Shown piece by piece: positions 2-32,000 of a stretch of DNA of 32,000 nucleotides. The notes beneath the pieces were generated by a model. The model was given only the letters and a program-made list of their open reading frames with translations. It was not told the origin of the DNA and did no database searches. The DNA is from an uncultured archaeon (GTDB taxonomy: Archaea; Asgardarchaeota; Thorarchaeia; Thorarchaeales; Thorarchaeaceae), in NCBI GenBank assembly GCA_964648855.1, contig CAZYLT010000012.1:60001-92000 (forward strand), written 5' to 3'. A program made the position numbers and the translations under genes. How positions within the stretch are numbered: the stretch's first letter is position 1; every line of letters begins with the position of its first letter.

Positions 2-238
2 GAAAAACATGATAGAATCATTGAGAAGGAGGGCTACATCTGGACCACAGAGAAGAGAAAATGGACAAAAGCTTCTGACCTGATTGATTCTAGTATCTCC
101 GAATATATGCCGAATGGGCTTCATCAATTGCATGAAACAGGAGATGTTTCCAGAAAGACACTCAATGTACTCCATAAGTACATCCTACAAATCGAAACTG
201 ATTTCACTCTTAACAATGTGGAAGAAGACAGCGAATAA
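2..238 (+). CDS. 3' end of an upstream gene (partial), possibly the C-terminus of an archaeal CCA-adding enzyme
   Basis: Frame 2 is open from the window start: EKHDRIIEKEGYIWTTEKRKWTKASDLIDSSISEYMPNGL...EEDSE*. Its stop overlaps the next ATG (TAATG at 236-240). The product guess rests only on loose resemblance of the 'GYIWTTEKRKWTKASDLI' segment. Confidence 0.45.
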   Translation, partial: EKHDRIIEKEGYIWTTEKRKWTKASDLIDSSISEYMPNGLHQLHETGDVSRKTLNVLHKYILQIETDFTLNNVEEDSE

Positions 239-1332
239 TGCAAAGGAGAAGATTCATGGTGCCAATCAAAGACATAGCAATCATCACACATCCAATGTCA
301 GGAAACCATATTCCACCTTTTCCTCGACCCCACCTTGAATCATTTGAGGCGCCAATACGCACCCAGATGATGGTTGAGTATCTCAGAAAAGCAGGATATC
401 TAGGAAAACTCACTAACAAACGAGCACCAAAGGCATCATTCGAAGACATATTGTCGGTGCATTCCCCATATCTATTGGATTCAGTTAGAGTCCTATCGAA
501 CCTAGGAAGCGGAGTTCTTGGTGAATCGGCTTATGCCAGCCCAGGACTTCTGGATAGTGCCTTATTAGCTGTAGGAGGGGCTGAATATGCAGCAGAATTG
601 GTTGTCAAAGGACACTTCACACACACTCTCTCCATAATGCGTCCTCCAGGGCATCACGCTTCCAAATCGACCCCATCAGGACTCTGTTACTTCAATAATA
701 TTGCAATAGCAGTGAGAAAGGTGCAAGAATCAGAATCCGTGAAAAAAGTAAGTATAATTGACACTGACGACCACTTCGGAAATGGAACCTCAGAAATCTT
801 CTATGCAGACCCTAGTGTGCAGTACATTGGACTACATGAATATGACTATGAGATGTTCGGAGTGGGGCACTATGACGAAATTGGCTATGGAGAGGGACTA
901 GGTACGAATGTGAATATACCTCTCCTTGAAGGCGCGTCTGATGCTAGTTATTCATCCGCGTTTGAACGCATCGTGATTCCAGCGGTAGAAGCATTTTCAC
1001 CAGACCTGATTGCGATTTCCTTAGGTTTGGATACACATTATGCAGACCCAGTTGGCAACATGAATCTTGATACGTCTAGCTACTATAAGATTGGAATGCA
1101 TATTGATGACCTCACCAAAAGGGCAGATGCATTGGGGAGTTTCAGTGTGCTTGAAGGGGGATATAACCCCATGCTATTGGGCCCGTCTGTTCGGCTCACA
1201 ATAGATGGCCTTACGGGCATCGAGATGGAGAAGATGGATGACCAAATTGACCGGCTACAAGATGAAGAGATAGAGTCTAGCAATGAAGAGATAATATCGA
1301 CTGTTCTCAGTACGATGAAGAAATACTGGTAG
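238..1332 (+). CDS. Histone deacetylase family protein (Zn-dependent deacetylase, class II-like)
   Basis: Motifs RPPGHHA, GLCYFNN, DTDDHFGNGT, NVNIPL, GLDTHYADP, LEGGY. Confidence 0.95.
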   Translation: MQRRRFMVPIKDIAIITHPMSGNHIPPFPRPHLESFEAPIRTQMMVEYLRKAGYLGKLTNKRAPKASFEDILSVHSPYLLDSVRVLSNLGSGVLGESAYASPGLLDSALLAVGGAEYAAELVVKGHFTHTLSIMRPPGHHASKSTPSGLCYFNNIAIAVRKVQESESVKKVSIIDTDDHFGNGTSEIFYADPSVQYIGLHEYDYEMFGVGHYDEIGYGEGLGTNVNIPLLEGASDASYSSAFERIVIPAVEAFSPDLIAISLGLDTHYADPVGNMNLDTSSYYKIGMHIDDLTKRADALGSFSVLEGGYNPMLLGPSVRLTIDGLTGIEMEKMDDQIDRLQDEEIESSNEEIISTVLSTMKKYW

Positions 1333-8840: not shown

Positions 8841-9392
8841 CTATTCTCCTCTTGGCGGGTAACTCATCTTTATGTGAAATGAGCACAGCTCGTGTCCAGT
8901 TGCCATACATCTCTCTTCTACTACAGTAAGAGTTTCATATTCTATTCTATTATAGTCGGTTAGATACTCTAGGACAGACTCAATAAAGCCGCGCAAAAAG
9001 TAGCAAGATGGATCTTCGCTTTCATATCCTGAGGCGTACGGATTATCACGAATCTCGATTATTGCTTCTTCATCCAACCAAAGCTTGTAAAGCTTGGCAA
9101 TTTTGATGTCGCCGAACGGCACTATTAGAGTTTCCAGAGCCATTCTTATGAACTCAACAATACCCTTGAAATCTCCAGGAGGTTTTTGGTCCCCAATTTT
9201 GAAGTATTCTCGCTGTGCTTCAAGTCCTGCAAGACGTCCTGCAGAGTAATACAAGTCTCGCACTCTATCGGGAAACATAACTCCTATGCGATTTCCGATT
9301 TTGGTCCATGTCTTTCCAAAAAAGGCACGCATTAGCTCCTGCTCTTTTAGTCGACCTTTCCACCATTCAATGACTTCATCCTGATTAGACAT
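8841..9392 (-). CDS. V4R (4-vinyl reductase) domain protein
   Basis: NPYASG...PSCYFLRGFIE...EERCMATGHELCSFHI, the canonical V4R C / E-x-x-C-x-A-x-G-x3-C pattern. Confidence 0.85.
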   Translation of the reverse strand: MSNQDEVIEWWKGRLKEQELMRAFFGKTWTKIGNRIGVMFPDRVRDLYYSAGRLAGLEAQREYFKIGDQKPPGDFKGIVEFIRMALETLIVPFGDIKIAKLYKLWLDEEAIIEIRDNPYASGYESEDPSCYFLRGFIESVLEYLTDYNRIEYETLTVVEERCMATGHELCSFHIKMSYPPRGE

Positions 9393-9464
9393 CTTGGTCT
9401 CTCCAGTCTAGCTCTCAAAGGAGTGGTAGGTTAAGTGCTTTATGTTGATAAATTAAAATCCAAT

Positions 9465-9938
9465 CTATCCTAGCCGGACATTCCAAACGCAAACTTCTGC
9501 ACCGGTAGCACGACTCATTTCTTGAAAGACCTTCACGTCAACTCCCTTAAAGTCCAGAATAGATTCCAATATGCCACTAAAAATCTCGCAGTATCCAAAT
9601 CCGCGCATTCCCTCGAGGTTCACTTCTTGGCACCAGACGCACTCTTCGTCTGTCACACGGATTGATCCTCGTGCGGAGTCCATATCCAAGTCGTCAGGCT
9701 TCTTATCATATAGGACTTTGAAAACGGATTCAATGAGTTTGGATACGTCTTCTCGAGTGGTTATCGTGTCTTTGGTTTTATCAGCAATCTCGGTATTTAG
9801 GTATAGATTTGTACCCAACCCACGACCGATATCACGAAGCCTTTCATTTGCAGCCTCGATATTACTGGTCTCCTCCATCACACCATCTACTATCCAACCA
9901 TATATACTAAGCAACAATGGATTCTCGATATCGCCCAT
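9465..9938 (-). CDS. Bet3/TRAPP-like V4R-fold protein (copy B)
   Basis: LLSIYG...ANERLRDIGRGLG (Bet3-like helices), CVWC...YCEIFSGILESIL...QEMSRATGAEVC. Colinear with 12354-12860. Confidence 0.75.
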   Translation of the reverse strand: MGDIENPLLLSIYGWIVDGVMEETSNIEAANERLRDIGRGLGTNLYLNTEIADKTKDTITTREDVSKLIESVFKVLYDKKPDDLDMDSARGSIRVTDEECVWCQEVNLEGMRGFGYCEIFSGILESILDFKGVDVKVFQEMSRATGAEVCVWNVRLG

Positions 9939-9963
9939 TAGGATGAAACCTCACTTATGACTA

Positions 9964-10950
9964 CTATACAGTTTTGCCAATCATACTAACATTCTTTCGG
10001 TATTTAGCTAGCACATTGATGACCATCTGCTTCTGAACCCCAGCAGCTTCTGCAACTTCTGCAGTAGTTCTAGTACCATCACAGAATTTTAGGATATCTT
10101 CGTCTGCGTCCATCGCCTTCGAAAGATCGCCCTCAAATTTCGGACATTTTACGAATTGACCCATGGTGCCTGCCTTGGCGCCCTTGCCGTCTTCTGCTTC
10201 AATGGCTGGAACATCAACAATATTCCTCGATGCTGCCCATTTAATGCACTCTATAACTCGCTCTGTAGGTTGAAACATCGAGTCTGCAACTTGAGCAACA
10301 CTCACGTTGCCATCAACCAGCATCAAGACATCAAACCCGAAGTTCCGATATGTCTTTTTCATCTCGGATGATAATTCAGAGTCTAGTGACAAGGTAGTGG
10401 CATATGCAGCTCCCCGTTTAGGAATCGTGGTCGGGATAACCTTGAAGTCATCAGGAGACCTTTCTTCAGGGGGAGCCTCCTCTGATTCTACTTCTGGTTC
10501 CGCTTCAGCAGTGACCAGTACTTCAGCAGCGGGTTCTTCTGCAGCTGTAGAGGCTGCTTGAATACCTATACTCTCTAGTACCTGTAGATTACCTTCAGCA
10601 GACTCCTCGAATTCATCCGGAGGAGGTGGAAGTTCTATTCCCTCTAGCATTCTAAGTACATTCTTGGTCTTTGCTATAGCCAATCCAAGCTGCAGCTCAG
10701 GCACATACAGAACAGTCAGAATCCAGTGCTCATCTACAGGGGATAATACAACGAGGCCTTTCTCGGTATCAATAGTCATGAGTCTTAAATCAGACTTGTA
10801 TAGCGAGATGCTATCTTTGACTCTTGGAAAGAGCTCGTCGGGGAATGAAAAACTAACGAAGGGTCGACCTCCGCTTGTCATCAATGAGTATCCCAGCACT
10901 TGGTCATCAAATCGGAGTTTTGAGAGTGCTCTTTCTAAATCGGTGGACAT
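9964..10950 (-). CDS. Roadblock/LC7-like domain + acidic linker + two winged-helix-like domains (paralog B)
   Basis: N-terminal alpha-beta-beta-alpha-beta-beta-beta-alpha pattern ending LGLAIAK; Pro/Glu-rich linker; LMLVDGNVSVAQVA and LKFCDGTRTTAEVAE HTH-like motifs. GAGGA upstream. Confidence 0.7.
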   Translation of the reverse strand: MSTDLERALSKLRFDDQVLGYSLMTSGGRPFVSFSFPDELFPRVKDSISLYKSDLRLMTIDTEKGLVVLSPVDEHWILTVLYVPELQLGLAIAKTKNVLRMLEGIELPPPPDEFEESAEGNLQVLESIGIQAASTAAEEPAAEVLVTAEAEPEVESEEAPPEERSPDDFKVIPTTIPKRGAAYATTLSLDSELSSEMKKTYRNFGFDVLMLVDGNVSVAQVADSMFQPTERVIECIKWAASRNIVDVPAIEAEDGKGAKAGTMGQFVKCPKFEGDLSKAMDADEDILKFCDGTRTTAEVAEAAGVQKQMVINVLAKYRKNVSMIGKTV

Positions 10951-11175
10951 GATTGTATTCCTCGAATCCTCTGGTTGTGGTCTAAAGCTGCGCTTCCGAT
11001 TCTTCCTTCCCGAGTATAGTGAAAAGGGTTGCGGTAATGAATCACAGGTCCATGACGAGCGATTGCATGATTATCGTGAGAATGAGGAAGAAGATACATT
11101 TCAGTGGTCGTAGTGGCGATGGCAACAACATTAAGAGGCATTCTCATAACTACCAGCTGGTAGAGGTCAGAGAAA

Positions 11176-11769
11176 ATGCGAAATTTTGCAGGAGGTTTTG
11201 TCGGGTCAATTTTGGCTATGGCATTGGCTTATTTCTTGATAGACAACACATCAATCGCCTATCCTGAGAATGTAGAGCTGGTAGGCTTCCTGCTCACAGG
11301 CTCAGTCATACTCTCGGGGTCTCTAGAGAGCATTATTTCGCTCAATTCCATATTGGAACTCATAGTATTGTGGGGACTAGTCGGTCTAATAGTTGCACCG
11401 TTCGGGGTTAGCGAATGGAACTTGCTTAGAACCGCGGTTTGGATGGGCGGAATAATAGCAACGTTCGCTCTCTCATCCACATTATCAGTAAATCCCGGTT
11501 TTTGGGTCCAAAACGATCGAAACCTGCTCCTAGCCATTCTCTATGCGAAAACAATCATTGCTTCTCTAATCTCAGTTCCATTCTCATTTTTGGTCTTCAA
11601 TGCAAAGAAGCGGTGGCTGAGAAAAGGACCGGAACCGGTACCTGAAAAGATAGAAACAGTCTGTGAGTGCGGGGCAATCTACAAGTCAAATCCTCTTATT
11701 TGTGTAGAGTGTGGCCGACAGCTTCGAGGGCAGACAGAAGAAAAATCGGGTGAATTATCTGGGTCGTGA
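11176..11769 (+). CDS. Predicted ~4-TM membrane protein with C-terminal zinc ribbon
   Basis: Hydrophobic helices followed by CECG-x8-CVECG. GAGGT upstream. Confidence 0.75.
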   Translation: MRNFAGGFVGSILAMALAYFLIDNTSIAYPENVELVGFLLTGSVILSGSLESIISLNSILELIVLWGLVGLIVAPFGVSEWNLLRTAVWMGGIIATFALSSTLSVNPGFWVQNDRNLLLAILYAKTIIASLISVPFSFLVFNAKKRWLRKGPEPVPEKIETVCECGAIYKSNPLICVECGRQLRGQTEEKSGELSGS

Positions 11770-12270
11770 GATTCCACCGCCCAAAAGGCCACCCACAACA
11801 CTGGCAATTGCTGGATAAAGAGCACCCTCTAGCACAACTTGCAATATCAGCATTGATTGACCGCCGATTATTGCGGCGTAGTCAGTGGTTTGCACCAAAA
11901 AAATCAACAGCCAACTCAGAAAAGCCCCAATAATCACCGCAAATAGAGCAGCAAATATACCCTGAACAATGTCACGGGAAAGAAGACCAGCAATAAGGCC
12001 ACCAGTCCCCCAAACCAAGAACGTTAGAACTTGGCTGCCTGTTGCTCCGTATCCAATGTACATCCCGATGTTTACACCACTCAGTGTTGTTGGATAAAGA
12101 ACTGTGGAGATAATAACCAGTTTGAGTTCGAGGTCACTTCTATCCAAGAAGTCGCTTATGATTGTGGGATCAATTACTTCTGGCGGAATAGCAATACCGA
12201 TGGTTAAAATAACGAAAGTCAAAGCAAAAGCAACCACCAATCCTGCCAGTGTGCCGATTCCTTGACCCAA
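11755..12270 (-). CDS. Predicted ~4-TM glycine-rich membrane protein
   Basis: Highly hydrophobic with WGTGGLIAG and GGLLGGG motifs. GGAGGA upstream of the TTG start. Confidence 0.75.
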   Translation of the reverse strand: MGQGIGTLAGLVVAFALTFVILTIGIAIPPEVIDPTIISDFLDRSDLELKLVIISTVLYPTTLSGVNIGMYIGYGATGSQVLTFLVWGTGGLIAGLLSRDIVQGIFAALFAVIIGAFLSWLLIFLVQTTDYAAIIGGQSMLILQVVLEGALYPAIASVVGGLLGGGISRPR

Positions 12271-12353
12271 TCTATGTCCTCCATATCAAACTGATATTAC
12301 AATTCGAATGTAGTGTTTTAAGCATATTCAAGAGCGATTTCTATCTGGATACT

Positions 12354-12860
12354 CTAATCCAATTTTCTTAGGGTCCATGTGCAAACATCGTCACCCAATG
12401 CTTTACAGGACTCCTGAAATGAGTCAGCATTAAAGCCGCGCAATTTCATGACTGCATCGAATACTCCACTGACTAGATTGCAGTATTGTAGCCCTGGCAT
12501 ATCAGTAATCTGAACACCTTCACATATTGGACAATTGGCATCTGTAAACTTGATAGTCCTCTCGTCATCACTGATCCAAACGCCCGTGAAGTCTTGTCCA
12601 GAATTAACTTTGTAAGCCAACTGAAGCGTGTTGGAGAATTCTGCAAAACTAGCCGCATGATCTTTGATTCTATCAGCGTAGTCCATCAAGAGAGTTTCAC
12701 CCACCTTGAATCCAACATCCTTCATTTTCCTGTTTATCTCGTCCACACTCTCACTTGTTGTCATCAGCATATTCTGCAGCTCTCGATAAGTAGCTTGAAA
12801 TAGTGTTTTTGATACTTTGTCAATTTTGAGAGCCCAAGCGAGTTTTCCTTTGATACCCAT
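12354..12860 (-). CDS. Bet3/TRAPPC3-like V4R-fold protein (copy A)
   Basis: LFQATYREL...EINRKMKDVGFKVGETLLMDY...GLQYCNLVSGV resembles TRAPPC3/Bet3 (LFTLTYGAL...VNKQLDKMGFNIGVRLIEDF...LIYSNLLCGV, recalled from memory). V4R-type ESCKALGDDVC C-terminus. Confidence 0.8.
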   Translation of the reverse strand: MGIKGKLAWALKIDKVSKTLFQATYRELQNMLMTTSESVDEINRKMKDVGFKVGETLLMDYADRIKDHAASFAEFSNTLQLAYKVNSGQDFTGVWISDDERTIKFTDANCPICEGVQITDMPGLQYCNLVSGVFDAVMKLRGFNADSFQESCKALGDDVCTWTLRKLD

Positions 12861-12875
12861 AGTATTACCTTCATT

Positions 12876-13802
12876 TTATATTCTTGATTTACGCACGAAC
12901 TTCACTGCTTTCCCTCTATATGGAACTACACTCTGTAGAGCCTGAAAATATGGAATATTCAACAACTGTGCAATTTCTTGTAAGGTGTGAGTGCCATCAC
13001 ATTTTTCGATAACATCACGATGTTCCTTCTTTATCTTGTTGATTTCTCCCTCAAAAATAGGAACTTCGACAAGTTCCTTCTTTTCTAAAGCTTGTTCCTC
13101 AGGACATTCGGCCGAAATAATCTTCCGTGAAACGCACCAGCGAAGAACATCCATTACTTTTTCAACTTGCCGTGCCACGGCTTCAGCAATCTTGAAGGCG
13201 GTTCGACGTTCATCAACCATCATAAGAATATCAAGAGCTGTGTTTCCAAATTCGGCTGTGAGCTCTGTATTTACAGGGGTGTTTGTTGCCATTGATTGAC
13301 TGTAGTTTTCGTCTCGGTGAATTATGCAGCCATGTCGCATTTCCACTTCATCAGGGGAAAATGATTGCCGCGGGGTTTCGACAACAGGCGATTCCTGTGC
13401 CGTGATTGCTTCTATTTGGACGACTTCCGTAACTTCTTCGTCTGAAACATCTGGATCCGGCACATATACTGAACTGGGAGGAGAAGGCAAATCAACTTCA
13501 CCTAACAACTCCATTACGTTTCGTGTCTTCTGCAATGCCATCCCTAAGGACTCTTCAGCATCGAAAAGGACCCCCAGAACCCAATAGTTGTCAACCCGCG
13601 CTAGAACAACTGTTCCTGCACCGCTCATGATGTTCATCAGTTTCAGGGATTCTGCATGAATTTCCAGAGTTTCCTTAATTGTAGGGAGAATTTCATCAGG
13701 TAGAGAGAAAGAGAGGAAGGGAGTTCCATCGTTGGTGAAAAGAGCATAGCCATTAACCGACTGATCAAATCGGAGTTTCGTTAATACTCGCTCTAGTTCC
13801 AT
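12876..13802 (-). CDS. Roadblock/LC7-like domain + acidic linker + two winged-helix-like domains (paralog A)
   Basis: Aligns without gaps to 9964-10950 over the first ~107 aa. The start is placed at the ATG at 13802 (MELERV), matching the paralog and removing the overlap with the PfkB gene. Confidence 0.7.
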   Translation of the reverse strand: MELERVLTKLRFDQSVNGYALFTNDGTPFLSFSLPDEILPTIKETLEIHAESLKLMNIMSGAGTVVLARVDNYWVLGVLFDAEESLGMALQKTRNVMELLGEVDLPSPPSSVYVPDPDVSDEEVTEVVQIEAITAQESPVVETPRQSFSPDEVEMRHGCIIHRDENYSQSMATNTPVNTELTAEFGNTALDILMMVDERRTAFKIAEAVARQVEKVMDVLRWCVSRKIISAECPEEQALEKKELVEVPIFEGEINKIKKEHRDVIEKCDGTHTLQEIAQLLNIPYFQALQSVVPYRGKAVKFVRKSRI

Positions 13803-14983: not shown

Positions 14984-15427
14984 TTAGACCTTCTTAAGAG
15001 CTGCTTTCACCATTGAGGTGATTTTGTCCTCATCAATTCCAGTCTTGTTAGTTGTCTTCTCAATATCGCAATAAGCCAAGTCAGAGATGGTCAGGATTCC
15101 TGCACCAGCAAGTGCTTCAGCATTTGCTTTGCTTACGCCACGAATTGATGACAGCTCCTCAATTGCTGTGGCAACATTGGTTGCAGGCTCTTCAAGGGAC
15201 ATCGCCTCGATAATGTCATCAATCTCTGCAACATAGTTCTTCAGAGCTTCAACGTTCTCTTCATGGAGCGTTCTCCGTCTGAGGTCAACAATGAGCCCCA
15301 TATCTCTGGTCTCAGGGATAGTGAGATCAGCTGCTTCAATCTCCTTCTGACTGAATCCACGTCCAATACGCGGCCGTTTGTCTTTGGGTGCTCGTACAAC
15401 AGGTTCAGGTGTTATGTCGAAGCTCAT
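14984..15427 (-). CDS. rpl13e: Ribosomal protein eL13 (L13e) with C-terminal helix-hairpin-helix domain
   Basis: RIGRGFSQKEI...GLIVDLRRRTLHEENVEALK is the archaeal L13e signature, followed by LSSIRGVSKANAEALAGAGILTISDLA. The ATG at 15427 is preferred. Confidence 0.85.
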   Translation of the reverse strand: MSFDITPEPVVRAPKDKRPRIGRGFSQKEIEAADLTIPETRDMGLIVDLRRRTLHEENVEALKNYVAEIDDIIEAMSLEEPATNVATAIEELSSIRGVSKANAEALAGAGILTISDLAYCDIEKTTNKTGIDEDKITSMVKAALKKV

Positions 15428-15730
15428 TTTTTCGTTGGCTCCTATCCAGAACCATCGACTCGACAAAGCGCTTATTAGGCTTTCGAGATGGCACAAATTC
15501 AACTAATCGCTATATCGACCTATGCCGCAAAATCCATGGTGCAGCAATCTCCACCAATGCTGCTAGAATGATAGAAAGCAAGAGAGGAGGAACTGAGCAA
15601 TATTAACAAACTGAAGTGCAGGATAATCCAACTCAATCTAGTGTATGAATCATAAATACATACCCTCCATGGTGATTTTACGTATATCCTTATTAATTGA
15701 GTAATGAAAGCAAAAAGCACTACGTGGCTT

Positions 15731-24017: not shown

Positions 24018-25871
24018 ATGGTGATAACGGTGGCTTCCGACAAGGAAAAACTTGCAAAAGCAATGGAGGCGCTCAAGAAGGGAAAGAATGATGTTGCTCA
24101 GATTCTCCTATCACAAATCGCAGATAGTTTTGCATTACAAGGGTTGCATTCCAAAGCTGCAAATCTGTATGAGAAAGTTGCCATCCTAGGGTATCAACTC
24201 GACAAGACAGAAGTTGCTCTCAGAGCGATTGAGAATGCTACTCTTATGTATGTGCGATTGTCTGACGAAGGGGTATACAAGGACATTGTGCGCCTAAATG
24301 AGAGGGGCTCCAAAATAGCAGAGAAAGCAGAAATGTATGAAAGAGCAGCAGATGGTTACTTCAGAGCCTTAGATTTTGCAGCATCGGAACAAGAAAGAGA
24401 TCGCCTAACCTGCAAGGCCGCGGACGCACTTGAGAATCTTGCAGATATATTCGAAGAGAGAAAGGAGTTTGAGGAAGCTGTTAACACACTCAAAAAAGTT
24501 GGACGTCTTTACTATTCTGCAGGAGACCGCGAATTAGGATTAAGAATCCATGAAAGAGCGATAAGAGTTGCAATCCGTTGGGCAGACCAAGCAAAAGATT
24601 CGAAGAACTATTTGGCAGCAGGAAATGCTTTGGCTGAGGCAGCACAGATCATTCAGAATCAGGGAGATAATGTTGAGGCAGCACGTTTAATGATGGAGGC
24701 GGGAGAATATTATGAGAAGGGCGAATTGCATGAGAAAGCAGGGAATATCTATGATGCGGCACAGGAAGCTTACGATTTTGAGCGATTGACCAGTGCTACA
24801 AAGCAGGCTATGGCCCAAGCGGCAGAAGCGTATATGAAGATGGAAGGAAAACCGCAAGTTCTCGCTCCGCTTCTGGTAAAGGCTGGAGATATGTTCTCTG
24901 AACTTGGTCGTGTTATGAAAGCAAAATGGGCATACAAGCGAGCCAGTGAGCTCTTTGCTGAATTGGCTAAGAATGCAGCTGAAGAGGGAGATATCGATTC
25001 TGAAAAAACGAATCTTAGATATCGGGCGATGGGTCTAAGAAAATGGGGTAGAGAGAGAGAAGCTGATGAAATCTATACAGAAGTTGCCCAGTACTATCTC
25101 AACCAAGCAAAAAGAGAAGAAGAAAGAGGCGATGTCGAGAGGCAAGGCCTTTCGCTGGAGGAAGCATCAAAGGTTCTCTATGAGTACGGGGATGAAGAGA
25201 AAGCTCAAAGCAGCCTGAAACAAGCAATGGAGATATACCGCAACTTGGCTCAAACTGCCACTGATTCAGAGGAACCAGAGGATGCTTCGAAATTCTTTGG
25301 GAGGGCCGCGGAATGCGCTGGACGCCTTGGAGATAAGGAAAGAGAGAAGGAGTTTCATATCCTTGCGAGCAAACGAGCTGAAGATGCTGCGAAATACTTT
25401 GCAGATGTGGGTTTGAAGCAATTGTCAACAATTTGGAAGAGAACTGCAGCAGAAGAAGCCCTGAATACTCACAATCCAGATATGGTTGACAGAGCGATTG
25501 AGCTTCTGAAGCAATCGGTAGAGGGATTTCAGGATACAGGAGAACTCAAAGAAGCCTTTGAGGACTTGTACACAATTTTCTTCACGGTGTATATGCAAAA
25601 GCCCCAGGAGAGATCGAAGCTGGATGGCATTGTAGAACAAATGAATGACATTGCAATAGATGAACGCGACCTCTACTACTCCTCCATGGTGAATGTCATT
25701 CGGGCAGTTAATAAATCCGATAAAATTGGTGCACTATTAGCATTTCAAGAACAGGAAGACGAGCTCATTGGGAAAAGAGAGTCATTGAGGTCGCTTATTG
25801 AATCCGTCGAACCACCAGAAGAATCCGAGGATGAGGCTCCCAGAGACTCGACTCACTGGCTTTACAAGTAG
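24018..25871 (+). CDS. TPR-like / alpha-SNAP-like alpha-solenoid repeat protein
   Basis: 617 aa, almost entirely helical Ala/Glu-rich repeats (KAANLYEKVA, RAADGYFRAL, EAARLMMEAG, KAGNIYDAAQ, DASKFFGRAA). No catalytic motif seen. Confidence 0.8.
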   Translation: MVITVASDKEKLAKAMEALKKGKNDVAQILLSQIADSFALQGLHSKAANLYEKVAILGYQLDKTEVALRAIENATLMYVRLSDEGVYKDIVRLNERGSKIAEKAEMYERAADGYFRALDFAASEQERDRLTCKAADALENLADIFEERKEFEEAVNTLKKVGRLYYSAGDRELGLRIHERAIRVAIRWADQAKDSKNYLAAGNALAEAAQIIQNQGDNVEAARLMMEAGEYYEKGELHEKAGNIYDAAQEAYDFERLTSATKQAMAQAAEAYMKMEGKPQVLAPLLVKAGDMFSELGRVMKAKWAYKRASELFAELAKNAAEEGDIDSEKTNLRYRAMGLRKWGREREADEIYTEVAQYYLNQAKREEERGDVERQGLSLEEASKVLYEYGDEEKAQSSLKQAMEIYRNLAQTATDSEEPEDASKFFGRAAECAGRLGDKEREKEFHILASKRAEDAAKYFADVGLKQLSTIWKRTAAEEALNTHNPDMVDRAIELLKQSVEGFQDTGELKEAFEDLYTIFFTVYMQKPQERSKLDGIVEQMNDIAIDERDLYYSSMVNVIRAVNKSDKIGALLAFQEQEDELIGKRESLRSLIESVEPPEESEDEAPRDSTHWLYK

Positions 25872-29410: not shown

Positions 29411-31324
29411 TTGAGTGAGGATGGTTCACCAATTGGGAAGCGGCTAAAACGAACTGGAAAGATGCTGCTCGATGGTGCAGAAAAGCAAGTGAGTGATTAT
29501 AGAGATAGATTTGATAGTCTCTCAGGTGCTTTTGATGACCTTCTCTGCGATTTTATGAGGTCATATCCGCAGGAGAAGCTCGACACAGATTTCGCAGACG
29601 AGTTCTTCGGCAAGAATCGCCTGTATTTCCGTGGAATTGACGGTACAGTCTGCAAGAATCCCGTTTTCGACCTAATCATCTTTTTTGCTGGAGCCTATTC
29701 ATCAGGAGGGTATCTTGATGTCAAGAATGATGGTGAATTCGATATAGTATATGATGAAAATCATCTGGAGTCGGGTATTGGGATTTCAAGTGTTTTACCG
29801 GTCTACATAAGTGAGGTTCCTGATATTGACAAGAAGGTTACACCACGTGATGAAGAAGGTTACGTTGACCCTGCAATATCATATTCTGATGCTTGGATTA
29901 TTGACAACTCGGCTATTGCAGACTATATGATGGGATTTGCGGAGTTCTATCTAGGATACAAGTCAGTATCGAGAAAGAATCCGGTGGACATACTTTTTCT
30001 GGATAGAATACTCTCTTCCGAGGTTTCATCATTCTATGCTGAAACCTCACCATCAAGAGTTAGGCTTGACAAGGAGTCAGCGATTATTGGCAATTCATTT
30101 GATGGTGAGGTGTATACACCAGCTGATTGGATTTATGCCCGCAGACTATTTGGCAATCCCAAGCTTGGCACACCCCCGCCGCGTGGGGAATATATCCTTC
30201 CACGTGTGATGAATGAGTTGATTGAAGATAATGGACTAACTGAAGAACAGCTTGCCAAGCGTCTAGGTATCGACACAGAAGCTCGAAGAAAGCGGTTACA
30301 TAGTGAACTAAAGAAAGGCACTAAGGCCTACGCCGGGACTGAACCGGTTCTAGAGGTCATGGGAGATAAATTCAGTGTTCGCTCGGGGGTCTTGAGCCTA
30401 CATGAACGAACTGAGTCTATACTAGGAGAAATTGGTGAGAAAATTTTTTCAGAAGGAATCGACATTTCGGTGCAAGACCGGTTCAAAATCGACTCACACT
30501 GGCTTACTACAGTAGACTTCTCATTCCTTAGTCTCATGTCGATTTATTTTATGGTTGAAAACTGTCACAAGAACAATATACTTCTCCTCGGTATTGCCAA
30601 GGACACATCAGCAAGAGACCTGAAGCGGCAAGTCATCCCAACTCTTAATCACACAAAAATCTATGATGGAGGGTTTGGTCCAGCAGCCTCTCAGGTTCCC
30701 GATACTGATAGAATGATTCTTCAATGGACATCCTTGAAGGCTCGAGATAAGATTCCTGTGCCATGGGCTACCATTGAATATGATACTGCATTCAAAACAA
30801 TCATTCCACATTTTGATAGAAAACAAGATTTGGTATCAGGAGCAAGAAGGAATCAGATATCTCTTGAGAAGACCTTCGCGAAGTCCTATTTTCAGTTATC
30901 ACAAGCAAAGTCGGACCCCAAATTGAGAAGTAATGTATTGCTCTATGATAGGCTCGTATATCCTTCATTTGACACAAATGAGAATCAAGTGACGCGGTTA
31001 CAGCATGACTATACTGGAGACCCAGCAGAACCAGAACCGGTCGATTTAATTCTCTACCTTGAAGCCGAAAATAGTGTACAGCAGTTTATTATAACTCTCA
31101 TGAGAGCAATGACTAGTTCGAGTATTCCAGAGCTATTTGGGCATCTAAAGCCACTATATGTAGCGGACAAGGTTGCAAAATACTATTACCAGCAATTCGA
31201 CTCAATTGTTCGCAGCACAGCAAACTGGCTGGTTAACCGCCCAAGCCTTAGAGAATTTCTATTCTATTTGAGCACTTTTAGAGAAAGGAGGACAGAACAT
31301 GAAGAAACAAGAAGAATTTCCTGA
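29411..31324 (+). CDS. NurA-like nuclease domain protein (long form with HTH insertion)
   Basis: RGIDGT, DILFLDR, LLGIAKDT and FGHLKPLYVADK match NurA motif order; the gene overlaps a downstream HerA-like gene. Confidence 0.75.
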   Translation: MSEDGSPIGKRLKRTGKMLLDGAEKQVSDYRDRFDSLSGAFDDLLCDFMRSYPQEKLDTDFADEFFGKNRLYFRGIDGTVCKNPVFDLIIFFAGAYSSGGYLDVKNDGEFDIVYDENHLESGIGISSVLPVYISEVPDIDKKVTPRDEEGYVDPAISYSDAWIIDNSAIADYMMGFAEFYLGYKSVSRKNPVDILFLDRILSSEVSSFYAETSPSRVRLDKESAIIGNSFDGEVYTPADWIYARRLFGNPKLGTPPPRGEYILPRVMNELIEDNGLTEEQLAKRLGIDTEARRKRLHSELKKGTKAYAGTEPVLEVMGDKFSVRSGVLSLHERTESILGEIGEKIFSEGIDISVQDRFKIDSHWLTTVDFSFLSLMSIYFMVENCHKNNILLLGIAKDTSARDLKRQVIPTLNHTKIYDGGFGPAASQVPDTDRMILQWTSLKARDKIPVPWATIEYDTAFKTIIPHFDRKQDLVSGARRNQISLEKTFAKSYFQLSQAKSDPKLRSNVLLYDRLVYPSFDTNENQVTRLQHDYTGDPAEPEPVDLILYLEAENSVQQFIITLMRAMTSSSIPELFGHLKPLYVADKVAKYYYQQFDSIVRSTANWLVNRPSLREFLFYLSTFRERRTEHEETRRIS

Positions 31325-32000
31325 AAAGTTGTTCACGGATTTTGATGGCGTTTTTGACGGTGTCTTAGCAAGAGTTGCGTCAATACCCGCGAATTACACC
31401 TCGGAGTGGGCGGGTTCAGCAGCACGCTATGAGTGCAAGATAAAGATACGATACAACAAGGAACTGATGGCACAACTAGAAGAGGGCATGATGCTTGCAG
31501 TGCGCAACTTTCGAGGTCAATCTGAACGCGCCAAAAAAGAGGGGATCCAAAGGTATACTGTAATGGTAGTCAGCAAGGTTTGGCCCCTACACTATGGCTT
31601 AGGTGGGGTTCGTGATAGCCATTATTACCCGCTGCAAATGGAGATCATAGAGCAAACGGTTCCAGATTGGGATACTGATGACCAATCCACGATGATGATC
31701 CATATGGCTGCCATCCCAATCAACTACGACTTAGTAATTGATGCCGATGGGAAAGTCCACTTCAAGAAGGGATTCTCGTATCCGCTGATAGGTGACAAGG
31801 TCCATGTCATTAATCTTGAAACAGTTGACATGATATACAACTCCAGAGTAAAAGAGGCGATAGGTTTCGATGGTGACCCGCTAGCAGAAGACCCGAAGGA
31901 TAACCCTCGAGTAGGGGTATTGAGAATGTTCATGGAATCTGACAGGAAGGTCCCTATCTATGTTGACTTGCACAAATTAGTGAGATATCACTTTGGCGTC
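31299..32000 (+). CDS. HerA/DUF87-family ATPase, N-terminal part (runs off the window)
   Basis: Not in the ORF track. The frame is open from ATG 31299: MKKQEEFPEKLF...LEEGMMLAVRNF...YPLIGDKVHV...RVGVL...PIYVDLHKLVRYHFGV. This is a HAS-barrel-like region plus the segment that precedes Walker A in HerA; Walker A itself lies outside the window. Confidence 0.75.
   Translation, partial: MKKQEEFPEKLFTDFDGVFDGVLARVASIPANYTSEWAGSAARYECKIKIRYNKELMAQLEEGMMLAVRNFRGQSERAKKEGIQRYTVMVVSKVWPLHYGLGGVRDSHYYPLQMEIIEQTVPDWDTDDQSTMMIHMAAIPINYDLVIDADGKVHFKKGFSYPLIGDKVHVINLETVDMIYNSRVKEAIGFDGDPLAEDPKDNPRVGVLRMFMESDRKVPIYVDLHKLVRYHFGV

Follow-up and report, generated by a model that had tools for sequence, protein, structure and literature searches.

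Which proteins work with the archaeal relatives of the eukaryotic TRAPP subunit Bet3 (TRAPPC3)? Asgard genomes encode many small GTPases, Roadblock, longin and TRAPPC3-like proteins, and their operons rarely reveal which of these proteins work together (PMC10933270). We analyzed a stretch of 32,000 nucleotides (the window) from a 94.6%-complete Thorarchaeota genome, in which a gene for a protein with a Roadblock domain and two winged helices (RbA, RbB) twice precedes a Bet3-like gene (TrA, TrB). Two membrane-protein genes (MemA, MemZn) lie between the copies, and a V4R-domain gene (V4RC) follows the second. We conclude that the Rb and Bet3-like proteins are very probably functional partners. 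The locus names partners for the only crystallised archaeal TRAPPC3, namely an NPRL2/3-like adaptor, a more eukaryote-like Bet3 paralog and a V4R protein, and the role of archaeal TRAPPC3 becomes a question for co-expression and GTPase assays. The seven genes, with product lengths in amino acids (aa), are:

12876..13802, minus strand: RbA, 308 aa; Roadblock domain, LPSPP motif, acidic linker and two winged helices; paralog of RbB
12354..12860, minus strand: TrA, 168 aa; Bet3/TRAPPC3-like, with four conserved Cys
11755..12270, minus strand: MemA, 171 aa, TTG start; about four transmembrane (TM) segments by hydropathy; behind TrA
11176..11769, plus strand: MemZn, 197 aa; about four TM segments and a C-terminal CxC...CxxC zinc ribbon, as judged by hydropathy and the Cys motif
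9964..10950, minus strand: RbB; Roadblock domain (aa 1-111), ELPPPP, disordered acidic linker (114-160) and two winged helices, wH1 (~165-250) and wH2 (~263-328)
9465..9938, minus strand: TrB, 157 aa; ortholog of the crystallised Thor-TRAPPC3
8841..9392, minus strand: V4RC, 183 aa; classical V4R-domain protein, third gene of the B operon

A duplicated pair of Rb and Bet3-like genes

Open reading frames (ORFs) for all seven genes were found where a sequence-only reading of the window had placed them. The longest RbA ORF extends to 13874, and the starts of its orthologs match the Met at 13802 that this reading had chosen. Each Rb gene is separated from its Bet3-like gene by the short gap already reported, 15 nt for the A pair (RbA end 12876, TrA start 12860) and 25 nt for the B pair (RbB end 9964, TrB start 9938); V4RC starts 72 nt after TrB. 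RbA and RbB share 31% identity over their full length (BLASTP E 2e-58), and TrA and TrB share 24% (E 6e-23), in line with the duplication suggested earlier. As judged by these alignments, the duplication of both genes as a paired unit is ancient and far beyond chance.

The seven-gene organization that had been described calls for two refinements. All seven genes are there, and the two membrane-protein genes do lie between the copies of the pair, but they are not co-oriented: MemA is on the minus strand, and MemZn, on the plus strand, converges on it with a 15-nt overlap. The locus therefore comprises at least three transcription units and is not one operon. Sequence comparison detected no similarity between MemA and MemZn.

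Conservation within the Thorarchaeota family

We denote the window's own Thorarchaeota family f1, its sister family f2, and other Asgard families by other f-numbers. Synteny across related genomes had been suggested as a check on the locus, and it is conserved: Rb genes occur in 75 of the 76 f1 genomes, typically two of them ~2.9 kb apart. Pfam-TRAPP matches number exactly two, and each Rb gene immediately precedes one of them. Nine genera keep the order L13e, pfkB kinase, RbA, TrA, MemA, MemZn, RbB, TrB, V4RC, membrane helix-turn-helix (HTH) protein, ABC ATPase and FtsX permease. By itself, this conserved whole-block order could be inherited synteny.

The members of the block differ in how well they are conserved. 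Mean identity across the nine genera is 76.5% for V4RC, the most conserved gene of the block, 71.5% for TrA, 67.7% for TrB and 64.9% for RbB, as against 50.4% for L13e, 49.9% for RbA and 35% for MemZn. These values indicate that RbB, TrA, TrB and V4RC are under strong purifying selection, an unusually strong constraint on four proteins of the module.

Recurrence of the pair in other Asgard lineages

Using hidden Markov models (HMMs) of wH2, the Bet3-like fold and the Roadblock domain, we searched the flanks in family representatives. In ten families (f1, f2, f4, f12, f13, f15, f16, f17, f19 and f28), a gene encoding wH2 adjoins one for a Bet3-like protein, which extends the pairing beyond the family of the window. 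There is one Rb-Tr-V4RC operon in f2, where V4RC again comes after the Bet3-like gene. In Freyarchaeum, one or two Bet3-like genes follow the gene for a 252-aa Rb-like protein, which has homology to wH2 in its C-terminal winged helix (hhalign 95.7%). The order is reversed in Borrarchaeum, with two Bet3-like genes and then a 224-aa protein that begins like a longin and ends in a winged helix of weak similarity (hhalign 56%; wH2 HMM E 6e-6), and f12 has a 160-aa winged-helix protein and a Bet3-like gene (hhalign 97%, E 7.6e-11).

The N-terminal domain of the partner is variable (Roadblock, longin-like, or short and Cys-rich), and the flanking genes differ too. The pairing of Roadblock and Bet3 seen earlier in the window thus recurs, but what accompanies the Bet3-like gene from lineage to lineage is the C-terminal winged helix and not the Roadblock domain.

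A profile built from Asgard Bet3-like proteins has matches in 287 of the 400 genomes of the phylum. An apparent case in f12 of Rb-winged-helix genes without TRAPP (PF04051 in 0/19) was withdrawn, since this profile finds Bet3-like genes in 19/19. The Bet3-fusion protein of f4 was rejected as an Rb relative, its N-terminal extension being unrelated to the Rb family by hhalign. In the most sampled family, f9 (L105, L109, L110), a Bet3-like gene is followed by a gene for a 486-489-aa protein with a weaker Bet3-like match and no Pfam family, which may be a long fused form.

The Rb proteins resemble NPRL2 and NPRL3

We analyzed RbB using an AlphaFold2 (AF2) model with a predicted local distance difference test (pLDDT) score of 80. 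The N-terminal order of helix, two strands, helix, three strands and helix is the Roadblock topology, and the domain superimposes on LAMTOR2 (1sko_B) with a VIA Z-score of 13.7 and a root-mean-square deviation (rmsd) of 2.1 Å over 103 of 116 residues. Its best matches are LAMTOR2, MglB and Asgard Roadblock proteins (Z 12-13.7), with Z 11.6-12.5 for MglB. When full-length RbB is submitted to Foldseek, a check that had been proposed for the locus, NPRL2 comes out on top (E 4e-7), and Npr2 and NPRL3 are among the further matches. For the C-terminal half folded alone, the 11 best matches are all Npr2, NPRL2 or NPRL3 (best E 4.3e-4), followed by sigma factors at E >= 0.05. The label of roadblock-wHTH protein therefore holds as to its parts, a Roadblock domain and winged helices, but NPRL2/NPRL3-like is the better description.

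The similarity is most evident in wH1, which aligns with NPRL2 164-236 and Npr2 234-307 at Z 9.6-10.4 and rmsd 2.2-2.5 Å over 73-74 residues (VIA); the NPRL2 stretch lies directly after its longin domain. DNA-binding winged helices in the same list (TFE-alpha, Z-alpha, Lrp/AsnC and ArsR types) reach Z <= 6.9. With both domains aligned, the rmsd is above 10 Å, their relative orientation not being modelled. Net charges of -2/-4 for wH1 and +1/+2 for wH2 make the winged helices acidic to neutral rather than basic, which argues against DNA binding.

Pfam signals are weak but recur across the family. Among 26 members of the Rb family, HTH_47 is matched by 21, Robl_LC7 by 9 (sub-threshold), DUF742 by 7 and HTH_NPRL3 by 3; the best HTH_NPRL3 E-value is 0.0087, and the DUF742 matches, which fall in wH2, lie below the Pfam cut-off. 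The family is very narrow, with 23 representatives among 1.84 billion proteins, and an Atlas fold search returned mainly its own Thorarchaeota clusters, together with a Thorarchaeota cluster of Roadblock-TrmB fusions. An Atlas feature search gave scores <= 0.78 and one cluster with NPR2 in 19% of its members, which we take as a lead only.

In the loop preceding strand 2, RbB has the sequence G-G-R-P-F and RbA D-G-x-P-F, the Arg being present in RbB only. This G-x-P loop lies at the position of the GP motif (PMC12290439) and is not kept in f2, Freyarchaeum or f12. Directly after the Roadblock domain stands a near-invariant (E/D)LPPPP motif (RbB 10618-10638, minus strand; the equivalent RbA site; f2), in which L107, P108 and P110 are at least 90% conserved in the alignment and which resembles a polyproline ligand.

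Two Bet3-like paralogs and a V4R protein

TrA and TrB had been called Bet3-like, and they are of the Bet3/TRAPPC3 type rather than ordinary V4R proteins, as judged by the Pfam TRAPP match of TrB and the matches of TrA to eukaryotic TRAPPC3 chains. TrB scores 40.0 bits against Pfam TRAPP (PF04051), above the cut-off of 27, and TrA scores 26.3 bits, 0.7 below it; TrA orthologs carry PF04051, and no other PF04051 matches occur in the genome of the window. By phmmer, TrB matches the Thor-TRAPPC3 structures 7YH3 (E 7.6e-76) and 7YH2 (E 1.1e-74), and with ~80% identity to the solved protein it is by these scores the ortholog of Thor-TRAPPC3. TrA matches 7YH3 at E 1.4e-22. Its direct matches to chains of eukaryotic TRAPPC3 have E-values of 1e-7 to 1e-5, as against only ~0.09 for TrB; TrA, the unstudied paralog, is therefore the more eukaryote-like of the two by sequence. 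An N-terminal MG(I/V)KG-LAW start is common to TrA and the Bet3-like proteins of Freyarchaeum, f8 and f12, and the four zinc-binding Cys are kept in all of these as well as in TrB.

The published Thor-TRAPPC3 structures (PDB 7YH3, SMTZ1-45, 1.7 Å; 7YH2, AB25; Tran, Akil, Senju and Robinson 2024, Commun Biol 7:273, PMC10933270) describe a zinc-containing homodimer that is nearer to the TRAPPC3/C6 heterodimer than to the bacterial V4R domain of PoxR. It has accessible hydrophobic cavities, and the authors favour ligand binding as its role; gene neighbours, the second paralog, the upstream Rb gene and the operon are all unmentioned (PMC10933270). The two-layer alpha/beta fold and dimerisation via two N-terminal helices are taken here from this solved, ~80% identical ortholog 7YH3, and by homology TrA and TrB would share with it the fold, the four zinc Cys and the dimer-forming N-terminal helices. 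Thor-TRAPPC3 was published alone, as a homodimer, whereas TrB is accompanied here by its 24% identical paralog TrA and by an Rb gene.

Fused, longer versions of TrA were sought without success, which is weak evidence, and a tree of Bet3-like proteins, with unresolved deep nodes and long branches, does not single out an ancestral paralog. In one genome (G046), codon ~22 of the TrA ortholog at L015:6989-7495 is an in-frame TAA instead of the Gln codon found in this window; several other genomes have single stops inside or at the edge of TrA or TrB matches, which could be pseudogenes, assembly errors or edge effects.

V4RC, described from the start as a third V4R gene, is an ordinary V4R protein (Pfam V4R, PF02830, E 2e-11; 44.3 bits, cut-off 31). 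It gave no TRAPP match in the Pfam search and aligns with TrB only locally, over 47 residues.

The membrane proteins

MemA has no credible Pfam family, the one match being sub-threshold (RRM_8, 19.4 bits against a cut-off of 26.2). It adjoins TrA in nine genera, and MemA and MemZn are always paired in f1, f2 and f12. In f12 the two genes stand beside the Rb-winged-helix gene, with the Bet3-like gene on another contig; in f2 they lie on a different contig from Rb-Tr-V4RC. The idea that the four-TM proteins tether the complex thus finds the genes inside the block in f1, but unlinked from Rb-Tr in f2 and with the Bet3-like gene elsewhere in f12. A membrane tether by MemA/MemZn is weakly supported, because the genes are unlinked in f2 and because L13e shares the same old synteny. 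The f2 genes adjoin two Snf7/ESCRT-III genes (L038, G112:C23:71043-74492; Pfam Snf7 E 2e-20 and 1e-8). We did not retain a Snf7 link to MemA/MemZn, which is seen in f2 only; the Snf7 genes of the window's genome are on other contigs.

Small GTPases near the module

No Ras-family gene was found in the window, as had been noted before. The genome has at least 25 Ras-family matches; the closest, a Rab-like gene at C12:52110-52601 on the contig of the window, ends 7.4 kb short of base 60001, where the window begins. In f2, the Rb-Tr-V4RC operon is divergently adjacent to a Ras-superfamily GTPase gene and a TPR/SNAP-like gene. The same GTPase/TPR pair lies 33-43 kb away in five f1 genomes, this one and four others; we rejected it as an operon partner in f1, where such a distance represents synteny. 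The GTPase of the pair is, in this genome, a conserved 238-aa protein encoded at C12:35886-36578. In f4 the Bet3-fusion gene is divergent from two Ras-family genes, and in f7 a Ras-family gene follows the Bet3-like gene. The TPR protein beside the conserved Ras-like GTPase 33 kb away (L027:570-1433) has an f2 ortholog that matches Pfam SNAP (E 1.7e-23).

A proposed complex and its alternatives

The module combines GATOR1-like and TRAPP-like parts. We propose that the products of the locus form a single hetero-oligomeric cytoplasmic complex, with two co-duplicated kinds of subunit, which serves as a platform that regulates a small GTPase, a proposal whose chances of being right or wrong we regard as evenly balanced. 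In this complex: (i) RbA and RbB would be adaptor or platform proteins with an NPRL2/NPRL3-like layout, paired through their Roadblock domains as in NPRL2-NPRL3, LAMTOR2-LAMTOR3 and MglB dimers; (ii) TrA and TrB would be zinc-containing Bet3/TRAPPC3-like subunits with a hydrophobic cavity, forming a Bet3-type heterodimer through their N-terminal helices, as TRAPPC3 does with TRAPPC6 and the TrB ortholog with itself in the crystal; (iii) the C-terminal winged helix of each Rb protein would dock its own Bet3-like partner, V4RC probably being an accessory ligand-binding subunit; and (iv) the assembly would be a platform for a Ras-superfamily small GTPase, as GTPase-activating protein (GAP), guanine nucleotide exchange factor (GEF) or scaffold. 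MemA and MemZn may provide a membrane site, which is the weakest step. Step (iv) is proposed because Roadblock/longin dimers regulate small GTPases in MglB, Ragulator, GATOR1, TRAPP and the actinobacterial conservons, and by this analogy small-GTPase regulation would be the most likely mechanism.

A more specific version, a surviving archaeal "proto-TRAPP/GATOR" in which two heterodimers, one of Roadblock-winged-helix and one of Bet3-like subunits, bind each other and together switch a small GTPase at a membrane site, strikes us as somewhat unlikely. If true, the association of Bet3 with a platform in TRAPP and the NPRL2/3 layout of GATOR1 would descend from one pre-eukaryotic Asgard assembly.

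Several observations weigh against a GTPase-regulating complex of this kind. RbA and RbB have no Pfam NPR2/NPR3 match at E <= 1, and the genome has no PF06218 match, so that the layout shared with NPRL2/3 may reflect either homology or convergence; the N-terminal domain also has Roadblock, not longin, topology. A GTPase gene is found neither in the window nor beside the module in f1, and the Ras-family adjacencies in f2, f4 and f7 are suggestive and no proof, because each genome has at least 25 Ras-family genes. No winged-helix partner lies within 1.5 kb of the Bet3-like genes in 11 other families of the sample, where tandem pairs of these genes or longer Bet3 fusions are common. Finally, green fluorescent protein fusions of Asgard proteins were diffuse in HeLa cells, with no membrane targeting (PMC10933270).

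The main rival is ligand or lipid sensing. TrA, TrB and V4RC would bind a hydrophobic small molecule or lipid and thereby control RbA and RbB, which would be transcription regulators with the adjoining membrane-anchored HTH protein and ABC/FtsX exporter as possible targets. V4R domains are the ligand sensors of bacterial regulators such as PoxR, Thor-TRAPPC3 has cavities for which its authors propose ligand binding (PMC10933270), and the Rb proteins, each with two winged helices, match HTH families weakly. The cluster of Roadblock-TrmB fusions points the same way, as do the membrane HTH protein (HVO_0163-type, HTH_24), ABC ATPase and FtsX permease that are conserved downstream in f1. However, these HTH/ABC genes are not beside the pair in the Freyarchaeum, Borrarchaeum, f12 and f2 loci, of which several kb were read; the acidic to neutral winged helices have the protein-binding ones of NPRL2/3, and not DNA-binding ones, as their closest structures; and Roadblock domains are known as GTPase partners. 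We judge transcriptional control by ligand sensing unlikely.

We consider it quite improbable that the module is instead a lipid-binding or lipid-handling membrane complex without a GTPase, in which the Bet3-like and V4R proteins carry lipid and the Rb scaffolds dock MemA/MemZn. Mouse TRAPPC3 binds palmitate, and the Thor-TRAPPC3 cavity is accessible and hydrophobic (PMC10933270). Bet3-like genes neighbour an SCP2 sterol-carrier gene in f8 (L089:1023-1361, E 3.9e-18) and an HMG-CoA reductase gene in f12 (L086:94-1371, E 5.7e-116), but each lipid-related neighbour occurs in one lineage only, and lipid-transfer activity is not known for Bet3-family proteins. The placement of MemA/MemZn (inside the block in f1, beside the Rb gene in f12, beside two Snf7 genes in f2) would fit such a complex; their separation from Rb-Tr in f2 and the Snf7 genes on other contigs in this genome would not.

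That the genes are adjacent merely as an old syntenic block inherited within Thorarchaeota, with no functional link, is highly improbable: the order from L13e/pfkB kinase to ABC/FtsX, kept in nine genera, does include genes without plausible connection, and L13e is near the Rb gene in f12 too, but the winged-helix partner adjoins the Bet3-like gene in ten families with different flanks and different N-terminal domains, the 15- and 25-nt gaps fit co-transcription, and both genes were duplicated as a unit.

Comparison with known systems

The closest parallel to the Rb proteins of the proposed platform is NPRL2/NPRL3 (yeast Npr2/Npr3) of GATOR1/SEACIT, the GAP for RagA/B (Gtr1), which supplies the best structural matches of RbB both at full length and for the C-terminal half. 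NPRL2/NPRL3 have the same order, a platform of the Roadblock/longin superfamily followed by winged helices, and NPRL2-NPRL3 is a heterodimer of two paralogs, as RbA and RbB are two paralogs. The N-terminal domains belong to the same superfamily but differ in type, being longin (strand-first) in NPRL2/NPRL3 and Roadblock (helix-first) in the Rb proteins. In place of the GP motif, the Rb loop reads G-x-P-F, with Arg only in RbB. A Bet3-fold partner is absent from GATOR1. A family resembling NPRL2 was described from most Thor metagenome-assembled genomes by Liu et al. (preprint 10.1101/2020.10.19.343400), whose text does not mention TRAPP; it is probably the RbA/RbB family.

Actinobacterial conservons (CvnA-D, MfpB-E) offer a second parallel, in working logic only. 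They place a Roadblock/MglB-type protein and a small DUF742 winged-helix protein on a Ras-like GTPase, and wH2 has weak DUF742 matches in 7 of 26 family members. MfpC, the DUF742 winged-helix protein, is a GEF on the Ras-like GTPase (PMC11343762), and the Roadblock protein MfpD is reported as a GAP (PMC9769811). Roadblock and winged-helix proteins are separate in conservons but fused in RbA and RbB, and the conservon operon joins them to a Ras-like GTPase and a histidine kinase, neither of which is in the operons or the window here. The place next to the Roadblock module is taken by the Bet3-like protein.

The eukaryotic TRAPP core (Bet3, Trs31 and Trs33 with the longins Bet5, Trs23 and Trs20) likewise combines Bet3-fold paralogs with subunits of the Roadblock/longin superfamily. 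A similar resemblance is seen elsewhere, in the two Bet3-like genes and the longin-like winged-helix gene of Borrarchaeum, and a longin-TRAPPC3 fusion has been reported from Heimdall (PMC10933270). TRAPP longins are without winged helices, whereas the Rb partner has them, the winged helix being the most widely conserved element of the partner. Eukaryotic TRAPPC3 lacks the zinc site and is part of a multi-subunit Rab GEF with longin subunits; the association described here is one of gene adjacency. The pairing suggests that the association of the Bet3 fold with Roadblock/longin platforms predates eukaryotes. The individual proteins are published, and a description of the Rb-Tr pairing was not found in the literature searched.

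Neighbouring genes

Further genes of the window and related loci were noted. The gene at 14984-15502 (minus strand) encodes a homolog of ribosomal protein L13e that ends in a helix-hairpin-helix domain (HHH_5), and it lies near the Rb gene in f1 and f12. An HDAC-family gene occupies 238-1332 (plus strand), 7.5 kb from V4RC; in Freyarchaeum, an HDAC-domain gene (L035:7240-8016, Pfam) is directly upstream of the Rb-like gene, with L037:5867-6643 a look-alike by its N-terminal sequence. Two long ORFs without Pfam match lie on the plus strand at 29411-31324 (637 aa) and 31299-32000 (at least 234 aa, running off the window end). A 617-aa TPR protein encoded at 24018-25871 (plus strand) matches SNAP (soluble NSF attachment protein) at E 3.4e-11.

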